From assembly GCF_003334335.1 (NCBI RefSeq), contig NZ_QOWQ01000125.1: a stretch of 1,061 bases of DNA, one strand, 5' to 3'. A program made the translations under genes and the position numbers. Shown here one piece after another: positions 1 to 1,061 of the stretch. The first letter of the stretch is position 1. Each line of letters starts with the position of its first letter. A model generated the notes under the pieces. It had not been told where the DNA came from. It worked only from the letters and a program-made list of their open reading frames with translations, and did not search any database. The DNA comes from Escherichia coli (GTDB lineage: Bacteria > Pseudomonadota > Gammaproteobacteria > Enterobacterales > Enterobacteriaceae).

Positions 1-1031
1 CTCTGGTACCACTGCCATTTTTTATCCGCCTCATCAAATGCCTTCTGCGCACTGGCGAGCATATCCGCTGAGGATTCCGGACGACCGATATCCAGAATGG
101 CATCCCACATCGATTTGAACGCCTTCCCTGTTTTATCCGCCCAGGTTTCCAGCGTCCCCATGTTCTCTTTCAGGCGGCGGGTCTGCTCATCAAAGCCTTT
201 CGTGGCAGCATCGTTCGCCGCCTGTAAGGCACCGGCCTCGTCTCCGGAACGCTGCAGCTGTGCAACATACGCAATCTGCTCTGCCGTCACGTTACGGAAC
301 TGGCGCGCCATCGCCATCAGTCCCGACGTCGGGTCGGTGGTCAGTTTTCCGAAAGCCTCTGCAACCTTGTCCACTTCAACACCGGAGGCAGACGCAAAAC
401 GCGCGACACTCTGGTTAATGGCATCAAACTGTTCACCACCACGCACACCGGCATTCACCAGGGCTGCCAGTGACTCTCTCGCCTGGTTAAACGTCAGCCC
501 TGCTGCCTGCCCGGCTCTTGAGAGAGTCAGCATACGATCGGCAGTCAGTCCGGACTGATTACCGGAAAGAACCAGGGTTTTATTAAACGCTGAAAGCGTG
601 GAATCTCCCTGGTACCAGGCGTACACCAGCGCACCTGTCGCCACCGCCAGCGAGGTGACCCCGACCATCGGCAGGGTGATCGCACCGGCAAGCCCCCTGA
701 ACATGGGGATCATCCCGCCGAAGGAGTCCTTCACCTGACCGCCCTGTTGCAGCAGGATCAGCCAGGGATTCTGACCACCTGCAAGCTGCGTGGCGATATC
801 CGTAAACTGTGCGGGCAGGGTTCGCATGGCCGCTTTATACTGCCCGACGGAAATCCCGGCTTTTTGTGCAGCCAGCGCCTGGCGGCTCAGGCCCTGTTCA
901 ACAGCACTGGCGGTTTTTCTGGCGTCGGTATCCAGACCTGAAAAATGACGCCTTACCCGGCTCATCTGCTCATCGAAACGGACAGCATCCAGACTCAGGT
1001 CAATAACAAGATCACCAACCGGCTGGGACAT
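1..1031 (-). CDS. H: Phage tail tape measure protein, lambda gpH-like; 5' partial gene (about 343 N-terminal codons), continues beyond window position 1
   Basis: Seen in sequence: ATG at 1031..1029 (minus strand) directly follows an in-frame TGA (1037..1035), so the start is unambiguous. By manual translation the frame stays open for about 343 codons to the window edge. Product begins MSQPVGDLVIDLSLDAVRFDEQMSRVRRHFSG...NPWLILLQQGGQVKDSFGGMIPMFRGLAGAITLPMVG...AWYQGDSTLSAFNKTLVLSGNQSGLTADRMLTLSRAGQAAGLTFNQ...GVEVDKVAEAFGKLTTDPTSGL...AEQIAYVAQLQRSGDEAGALQAAN...TRRLKENMGTLETWADKTGKAFKSMWDAILDIGRP... Established knowledge (recalled from memory, not searched): lambda gpH starts MAEPVGDLVVDLSLDAARFDEQMARVRRHFSG... 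and shares the long identical blocks shown. A GGAGGTG ribosome-binding site sits 6 nt upstream. Confidence 0.9.
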   Translation of the reverse strand, partial: MSQPVGDLVIDLSLDAVRFDEQMSRVRRHFSGLDTDARKTASAVEQGLSRQALAAQKAGISVGQYKAAMRTLPAQFTDIATQLAGGQNPWLILLQQGGQVKDSFGGMIPMFRGLAGAITLPMVGVTSLAVATGALVYAWYQGDSTLSAFNKTLVLSGNQSGLTADRMLTLSRAGQAAGLTFNQARESLAALVNAGVRGGEQFDAINQSVARFASASGVEVDKVAEAFGKLTTDPTSGLMAMARQFRNVTAEQIAYVAQLQRSGDEAGALQAANDAATKGFDEQTRRLKENMGTLETWADKTGKAFKSMWDAILDIGRPESSADMLASAQKAFDEADKKWQWYQ

Positions 1032-1034
1032 ATC

Positions 1035-1061
1035 TCACACCTCCCGGAATCCCCGCTGAAG
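1035..1061 (-). CDS. 3' end of upstream ORF (8 codons plus stop visible: ...LQRGFREV*); by synteny the T segment of the lambda-like G-T tail assembly chaperone
   Basis: Seen in sequence: on the minus strand the frame ending at TGA (1037..1035) is open back to the window edge at 1061. Inference: in lambda the gene order is V-G-T-H, so the ORF ending just before H would be T. Only 27 nt are visible, so the identity rests on position alone, not on recognisable sequence. Confidence 0.45.
   Translation of the reverse strand, partial: LQRGFREV
1038..1044 (-). promoter_or_regulatory. Shine-Dalgarno / ribosome-binding site for the tape measure gene
   Basis: Seen in sequence: minus-strand GGAGGTG (reverse complement of plus-strand CACCTCC at 1038..1044), 6 nt upstream of the ATG at 1031..1029. 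It lies inside the last codons of the upstream ORF, an arrangement typical of translationally coupled phage late genes. Confidence 0.7.

Follow-up and report, generated by a model that had tools for sequence, protein, structure and literature searches.

A conserved apolar segment in the N-terminal part of a lambda gpH-type tape measure protein from Escherichia coli: a candidate membrane helix

Tape measure proteins of the lambda gpH type contain, within their TMP_2 domain, an apolar segment whose character is retained throughout the family. In the window analysed here (the whole stretch of 1,061 nucleotides from Escherichia coli), the segment comprises amino acids 107-140 of the product of gene H (MIPMFRGLAGAITLPMVGVTSLAVATGALVYAWY; positions 612-713, minus strand). 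As far as aligned homologs can tell, it is the apolar character, rather than the exact residues, that is conserved, identity within the segment being only average. The best explanation, given about an even chance of being correct, is that of a shielded, marginally hydrophobic, conserved TMP_2 helix which, after expulsion of the tape measure, would enter a host membrane or lie along it and so contribute to a DNA conduit. The counterpart of the segment in lambda has already been published as putatively transmembrane, and the finding, although real, is ordinary: prophages very commonly carry this gene, the feature belongs to its usual make-up, and no novel type of element is added.

The gene is a lambda gpH-type tape measure gene, of which the window holds the 5' part (positions 1-1031, minus strand): its reading frame begins with the ATG at 1031-1029 and is still open at window base 1, giving the first 343 codons. 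In the PDB, the 343-residue fragment matches the lambda tape measure (8iyk_H, E 4.6e-181, aa 1-340), the PHROG match is phrog_4498 (tape measure, E 3.6e-222), and the Pfam domain TMP_2 (PF06791; E 4.9e-70 in hmmscan, covering 2-207 of the 208 model positions) spans aa 54-256 (264-872, minus strand) and includes the segment. These matches bear out the relationship to lambda gpH proposed by the sequence-only reading. The 3' end of T, encoding the tail assembly chaperone made as the G-T frameshift product, lies directly upstream (1012-1061, minus strand; its frame ends in SAGIPGGVRYVPAGW followed by the stop codon) and shares 20 nt with the beginning of H, while a Shine-Dalgarno motif, GGAGG (1040-1044, minus strand), is located 8 nt 5' of the H start codon. 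The nearest phage record, PhiR12_1 (97.5% nucleotide identity), has the gene order V-G-T-H-M-L, with the counterpart gene annotated as H and located between T and M, and its T coding sequence agrees with the position of T in the window. H is therefore placed as expected for gpH, after the G/G-T frameshift chaperone genes and before the tip genes M and L, the M/L side being beyond the window and taken from PhiR12_1. The closest annotated full-length relative of the protein has 857 residues. Of 5426 complete E. coli genomes, 3715 contain relatives at 80% nucleotide identity or more, most often in more than one prophage, and the closest of these matches reaches 98.6%. Two short open reading frames over the segment (598-738, plus strand; 545-691, minus strand) were dismissed as by-products of a long GC-rich gene, and searching both strands of the window against Rfam gave no family above its threshold.

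Translation reproduces exactly the 34-residue apolar stretch with a single charge that had been described. R112 is the sole charged residue of aa 107-140, Ala and Gly together account for 10 of the 34 residues, and the charge-free run extends over aa 113-142 (30 residues). This run exceeds the length of at least 19 charge-free, predicted helical residues that characterizes the transmembrane class, the AF2 helix being of low confidence, and it is flanked in the manner of that class by a basic residue (R/K112) and by interfacial aromatics at positions 137, 139, and 140. The Kyte-Doolittle mean is 1.31 for the segment versus -0.17 for the whole fragment. Its 19-residue maximum of 1.83, at aa 118-136, exceeds the 1.6 threshold, and the Wimley-White octanol sum of -3.26 kcal/mol at aa 122-140 favours insertion, whereas the best 19-residue window on the translocon ("biological") scale, at +2.85 kcal/mol, is unfavourable to it (all three scales were hand-coded). 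The hydropathy signal anticipated for the segment is thus present on two scales and missing from the third. Composition-preserving shuffles reached the 19-residue maximum in 504 of 5000 cases (10%) and the 34-residue maximum of 1.40 in 170 of 5000 (3.4%); the hydrophobicity of this single sequence is marginal and only borderline against shuffles. Small-xxx-small pairs are found at A129-x3-G133, S127-x3-A131, and A134-x3-A138, while the canonical GxxxGxxxG motif is absent from the segment. The only other hydrophobic region of the 857-residue relative, a Gly-rich one at aa 686-735, lies beyond the window.

A homolog search of 1.84 billion cluster representatives returned 4891 proteins at E<=1e-3. 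The family figures refer to the best 150 of these 4891, among which 104 cover the region at less than 60% identity to the query (median 36%). A 19-residue Kyte-Doolittle peak of at least 1.28 occurs at the aligned position in all 104 of these diverged homologs (at least 1.6 in 81%), which excludes a chance origin, and in 78 of the 94 full-length homologs no other part of the protein is as hydrophobic as the segment. Charged residues (D/E/K/R) constitute 1.5% of columns 113-139 in the 104 homologs, the lowest share among all 27-column windows of the domain, and columns 123-139 are practically devoid of them. The translocon-scale energy is zero or negative in only 2% of homologs. Columns 113-139 consist to a large extent of Ala (26%), Gly (15%), Leu (15%), and Val (11%). 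The apolar character noticed in the single sequence is maintained in a family that runs to thousands. Neither a complete lack of hydropathy signal nor a lack of conservation among homologs, either of which would have overturned the sequence-only reading, was thus observed.

Individual positions of the segment are kept to different degrees. Position 112 is Arg or Lys in 85% of homologs. The best-kept columns inside the run are 129, 131, 133, 135, and 138 (e.g., A129 in 80%, G133 in 65%, L135 in 73%, and A138 in 85%), and small residues are preserved at 113, 116, 129, 131, 133, 136, and 138, with 88-95% small residues at several of these positions and 87-93% in columns 129, 133, and 138. The run closes with aromatic positions at 137, 139, and 140, where Tyr, Trp, and Phe are common; the polar Q141 and G142 come next, and then E145 (86%). 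Conservation within aa 121-140 gave no clear signal of helical periodicity, the power at 100 degrees being 0.82 of the mean.

The proposal that the stretch belongs to one of the most conserved blocks holds for its apolar character and fails for its residues: conservation in aa 107-140 averages 2.17 bits versus 2.37 for the domain, which is average. The most conserved block is instead aa 68-106 (714-830, minus strand; AMRxLPAQFTDIxTxLAGGQxPxLxLLQQGGQIKDSFGG), which adjoins the segment on its N-terminal side, has a mean of 3.41 bits per column, and contains eleven residues that are invariant in the alignment (R70, P73, Q75, D78, G86, Q95, Q96, G97, Q99, D102, and G105). Domains of the TMP_2 type are present in 1548 of 50,697 phage records, and the segment together with the neighbouring motif is kept in lambda-like, T1-like, Dhillonvirus, Klebsiella, Pseudomonas, and Ralstonia phages. 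The start of the segment varies across homologs from aa 57 to aa 482 (median about 170), and a second hydrophobic cluster is found at relative position 0.8-0.9, corresponding to residues 682-719 of lambda.

A Pro or Gly occupies position 120 in 80% of homologs and divides the segment in two. Its N-terminal part is a short piece, aa 107-119 (MIPMFRGLAGAIT; 675-713, minus strand), seen in the alignment and the AF2 model as a short helix with the conserved basic R112. The second, aa 121-140 (PMVGVTSLAVATGALVYAWY; 612-671, minus strand), is a single charge-free run of 20 residues with an aromatic end, and represents the candidate helix of membrane length. Where one or two membrane-interacting helices had been envisaged, one can be retained, and the residue at position 120 argues against the second. 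The two-part description is supported by the mosaic tape measure of the Stx1a phage Stx1_1649, which is lambda-like through ...SDSFGG and there gives way to an acidic insertion some 55 residues long, after which come the apolar run RVAAGGGVAVLAALAAAAWQ and the shared L.LTG motif. This variant is without the first sub-part (aa 107-119), and the second half alone is kept.

Similarity to lambda had been taken as an indication of functional constraint on the segment, an argument that a comparison of substitution rates shows to be weak. Nucleotide identity to lambda is 98% at gene nt 271-390 and 80.5% over the gene. In this patch, with which the 32/34 residue identity of the segment coincides, dS falls to 0.158 from 0.78 over the whole gene, and dN/dS shows no decrease (0.17 versus 0.14 overall), so the lambda match says little about protein constraint; the patch looks like the product of recombination rather than of additional constraint on the protein. 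Among eleven closer lambdoid relatives, 65% of columns vary in aa 107-140 versus 22% in aa 48-106, a count that leaves out the frameshifted representative P0009. The frameshift of P0009 lies inside the segment, and its sequence reads the frame of 545-691. In distant phages, DNA similarity ends at about codon 107, where several mosaic genes break, and the aa 68-106 block is the only part still matching such phages at the DNA level.

An AF2 model of the monomer, built from a 33-sequence alignment (mean pLDDT 72), contains helices at aa 107-117 and 120-155 and a confident helical domain at residues 160-300. As pLDDT is below 50 for aa 118-136, the model does not pack the helix confidently into a soluble monomer fold. 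A Foldseek comparison of the model with the PDB yielded no match at E<=0.001, the best (0.17) being a designed helical repeat. The tape measure residues solved so far comprise only the last 30-35 of the protein (818-849 in lambda, PMC12617516, and 921-956 in T1), leaving aa 107-140 uncovered.

The favoured explanation can be laid out as a sequence of states. In the virion, the tail tube is filled by a bundle of several tape measure copies, in which the helix would be concealed; while the tail is being assembled, the G/GT chaperones probably cover it. Once the tip has opened on the receptor, the tape measure would be expelled and refold into a trans-envelope DNA conduit, in which a helix of about aa 121-140, one per subunit, may insert into or lie against a host membrane, anchoring or lining the conduit. 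Marginal hydrophobicity fits a protein that is soluble before Sec-independent insertion, and membrane insertion of the segment is what we infer. Published data on lambda come from the 2025 Ur-lambda paper (PMC12617516), in which gpH 116-140 is the favoured transmembrane prediction, with agreement of only some programs, and gpH 691-712 a weaker one. The same work reports that gpH* is protease-resistant in LamB liposomes, data that concern gpH* as a whole, and that it forms a periplasmic channel seen by cryo-ET; the N-terminal gpH segment is placed in the outer membrane in a tentative model (PMC12617516).

Several observations weigh against membrane insertion. Besides the unfavourable translocon energy, both here and in nearly all homologs, a tenth of the single-sequence shuffles reach the hydropathy peak. 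The segment lies near the N-terminus, which in a tape measure is the head-proximal end and the last part out of the tube, so that access to the inner membrane poses a topological difficulty. Nor can six single helices by themselves line the reported lumen of 3-4 nm (PMC12617516), and in TP901-1 deletion of one hydrophobic region had no effect. Part of this evidence would suit a helix devoted to protein-protein packing, whose Ala/Gly face forms the core of a tape measure oligomer (in the tail tube or in a periplasmic tube) and never enters a bilayer. The conserved small residues are of the kind usually seen where helices pack closely against each other, those C-terminal parts of tape measures that have been resolved form coiled coils that bury hydrophobic residues, and AF3 hexamers of gpH 1-319 are reported to form a tube with no membrane in the model (PMC12617516). 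Such a helix is nevertheless judged somewhat unlikely to be the whole explanation, as no clear helical face is detected in aa 121-140, most family members reach their highest hydrophobicity in the segment, and about 27 charge-free columns with an R/K flank and an aromatic end are more membrane-like than a coiled-coil core. Packing is moreover compatible with membrane insertion after ejection and hence no strict alternative to it.

A role confined to assembly, with the segment serving mainly as a binding site for gpG/gpGT, the chaperones that cover the tape measure and bring in the tube protein, appears improbable. For the hydrophobic regions of TP901-1, chaperone recruitment was the conclusion favoured by the authors, who found the first region essential and obtained separated heads and tails on deleting both, and a role of this kind agrees with the location of the chaperone gene T directly upstream of, and overlapping, H. 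Xu, Hendrix and Duda reportedly showed in 2014 that G and GT bind gpH. On the other side, no G/GT site is known to map to aa 107-140. The segment is also kept across many phage groups, whose chaperones are expected to differ, and the viable Bas14 mutants discussed below alter the outcome of an injection-stage defence, which points to a role in entry. Least credible is a fluctuation in the composition of an alanine-rich protein that arose by chance and has no specific role, a reading that the comparison of homologs refutes. The shuffle frequencies and a dN/dS to lambda no lower than in the rest of the gene would be in keeping with it; against it, all 104 homologs are apolar and charge-free at this place while identity to the query drops to about 32%, and the non-homologous replacement in Stx1_1649 is apolar as well. 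The membrane, packing, and chaperone readings are not mutually exclusive.

Independent information on the entry step is provided by a study of the SNIPE defence (bioRxiv 10.1101/2025.11.03.685801), according to which gpH is the phage protein that TurboID-ManZ robustly labels during injection, SNIPE has its DUF4041 and nuclease domains in the cytoplasm, and the lambda gpH substitution A304V permits infection without ManYZ. The corresponding residue is likewise Ala in the present protein (codon at 120-122, minus strand) and belongs to the same gene as the segment, outside aa 107-140. In the same study, phage Bas14 (TheodorHerzl, locus tags bas14_*) escaped enhanced or mutant SNIPE by tape measure changes Q100P, A105E, V117D, and deletion or duplication of residues 144-150 (bioRxiv 10.1101/2025.11.03.685801). 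The alignment of the Bas14 tape measure to the query spans residues 47-233 with no gap, the offset being +25 (E 3e-28). Q100 thereby corresponds to the invariant Q75, A105 to A80, and V117 to I92, all in the upstream motif block, while the seven deleted or duplicated residues correspond to query 119-125 (TLPMVGV), inside the apolar segment. The identities of Q100, A105, and V117 were also confirmed in the closely related Bas84 protein. The connection between these escape mutations and the TMP_2 block is a proposal added by the present analysis; it suggests that the block may matter at the DNA-entry step, possibly near the inner membrane, the location of escape mutations being no proof of a contact site.

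Because the gapless alignment puts the escape changes on the motif block and on aa 119-125, it is conceivable, if on balance doubtful, that in tape measures of the lambda, T1, and Dhillonvirus types the TMP_2 motif and the apolar helix reach the inner membrane, become exposed at its cytoplasmic face during entry, and constitute the conserved feature sensed by SNIPE and similar membrane-anchored nucleases. If so, the broad action of SNIPE on siphophages would be explained, and the tentative placement of the N-terminal gpH segment in the outer membrane would be contradicted. As to which membrane is involved, the published model tentatively indicates the outer one, whereas the Bas14 mapping may point to the inner.

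The question matters since siphophage DNA has to pass two membranes in Gram-negative hosts, for which the tape measure is the prime candidate conduit. Within the lambda-type family, aa 107-140 are the strongest candidate for a membrane anchor. A single charge-free helix at aa 121-140 beside a near-invariant motif could guide decisive mutants or crosslinking in lambda, and the escape mutations of a distant relative on the TMP_2 block could do so likewise.

Known systems resemble the present protein to different extents. Lambda gpH is its direct ortholog (83% identity over aa 1-340), with the segment at the same position, the same flanking motif, T upstream, and 32 of 34 identical residues in aa 107-140. 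The only differences there, V125A and V136A, are conservative substitutions that raise the 19-residue Kyte-Doolittle maximum from 1.59 in lambda to 1.83 here, and the T/H overlap is 8 nt in lambda versus 20 nt here. The more distant TMP_2 relatives, T1 gp38 (PDB 9l9p_B) and bas14_0019 of the Dhillonvirus Bas14, share the PAQxTD...QQGGQxKDxFGG motif, the charge-free Ala/Gly run, and xLxLTGN, but differ in the distance from the N-terminus, and the residues of the apolar run are poorly conserved among them. The recurrence of hydrophobic stretches in siphophage tape measures, stated at the outset, holds true for lambda, T5, and TP901-1. T5 pb2 contains such a stretch, proposed to insert into a membrane after expulsion, the outer one according to its authors, and to form a DNA channel; it comprises 46 residues with two predicted helices, lies near the C-terminus just before the point of maturation cleavage, and is the first part to exit the tube. 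The present segment, a single 20-residue span at relative position about 0.13-0.18, differs from it in both length and position, and no T5 chain was found among the PDB sequence matches at E<=1. The positional analogue of the T5 pb2 stretch in the lambda-type family is rather the second, Gly-rich hydrophobic region, at aa 686-735 of the 857-residue relative. TP901-1 likewise has predicted membrane-spanning stretches in its tape measure (I390-Y460 and F591-V679), the first of which is essential for infectivity; its regions lie mid-protein with three predicted spans each, the host is Gram-positive, and the authors consider chaperone binding likelier than membrane insertion.

The apolar Ala/Gly-rich segment of the tape measure protein (aa 107-140, window 612-713, minus strand) begins exactly at a mosaic junction, located at about window 711-716 (codons 106-107). 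In several tape measure genes, from Stx phages and others, the DNA match to the window ends at about codon 106 (comparison locus L005, 3031-5643). Past the junction, the Stx1_1649 protein carries an acidic insert about 55 aa long, followed by a new Ala/Gly-rich apolar run. The conserved motif block adjoining the segment N-terminally (aa 68-106) may act as a recombination joint.

The resemblance of the segment to lambda gpH, which the sequence-only reading had considered consistent with functional constraint, coincides with a patch at gene nt 271-390 (aa 91-130; window 642-761), where nucleotide identity to lambda H reaches 98%, compared with 80.5% across the whole 1020-nt comparison. Synonymous divergence from lambda H is likewise 0.158 within aa 107-140 and 0.78 overall. 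The stretch has the look of a patch acquired by recombination, not of protein-level constraint. The apparent variability of the segment among close lambdoid relatives had been inflated by one representative, P0009, which is frameshifted within the segment (aligned to window aa 115-139) and follows an alternative minus-strand frame (window 545-691, PVR..SPCRW...); it was removed from the comparison. Opposite the tape measure gene, the plus strand contains an antisense ORF of 153 aa (window 97-558), which probably arises as a side effect of GC-rich coding sequence on the other strand.

Mutations in the Bas14 (phage TheodorHerzl) tape measure protein allow escape from enhanced variants of the defence nuclease SNIPE (bioRxiv 10.1101/2025.11.03.685801). 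In a gapless alignment (offset +25) of bas14_0019 (L003, 101-874) with window aa 47-233, the escape mutations correspond to the invariant Q75, to A80, to I92 and to residues 119-125 of the window protein; the homology of these sites to the lambda-type tape measure apparently goes unremarked in the SNIPE preprint (bioRxiv 10.1101/2025.11.03.685801). The window protein also keeps A304 (codon 304, window 120-122), a residue whose substitution in lambda, A304V, enables infection of cells without the ManYZ inner-membrane permease (bioRxiv 10.1101/2025.11.03.685801).

C-terminal to the apolar helix, AlphaFold2 confidently predicts an all-helical domain (aa 160-300, window 132-552, pLDDT 88-98), and a Foldseek search of solved structures gave no significant hit for it (best E 0.17). 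It is difficult to square so compact a fold with a tape measure stretched out in a narrow tube, so the predicted model may represent the form adopted post-ejection.

In the full-length relative (L001, 6031-8604), a second, Gly-rich hydrophobic region occurs at aa 686-735, outside the window and near the presumed gpH* cleavage site; similar hydrophobic regions across family members are clustered at relative position 0.8-0.9. By position, the T5 pb2 stretch has its analogue in this region and not in the aa 107-140 segment. At the other end of the gene, the first 20 nt of H (window 1012-1031) are overlapped by the tail assembly chaperone gene T, whereas the T/H overlap in lambda spans 8 nt (10542-10549).
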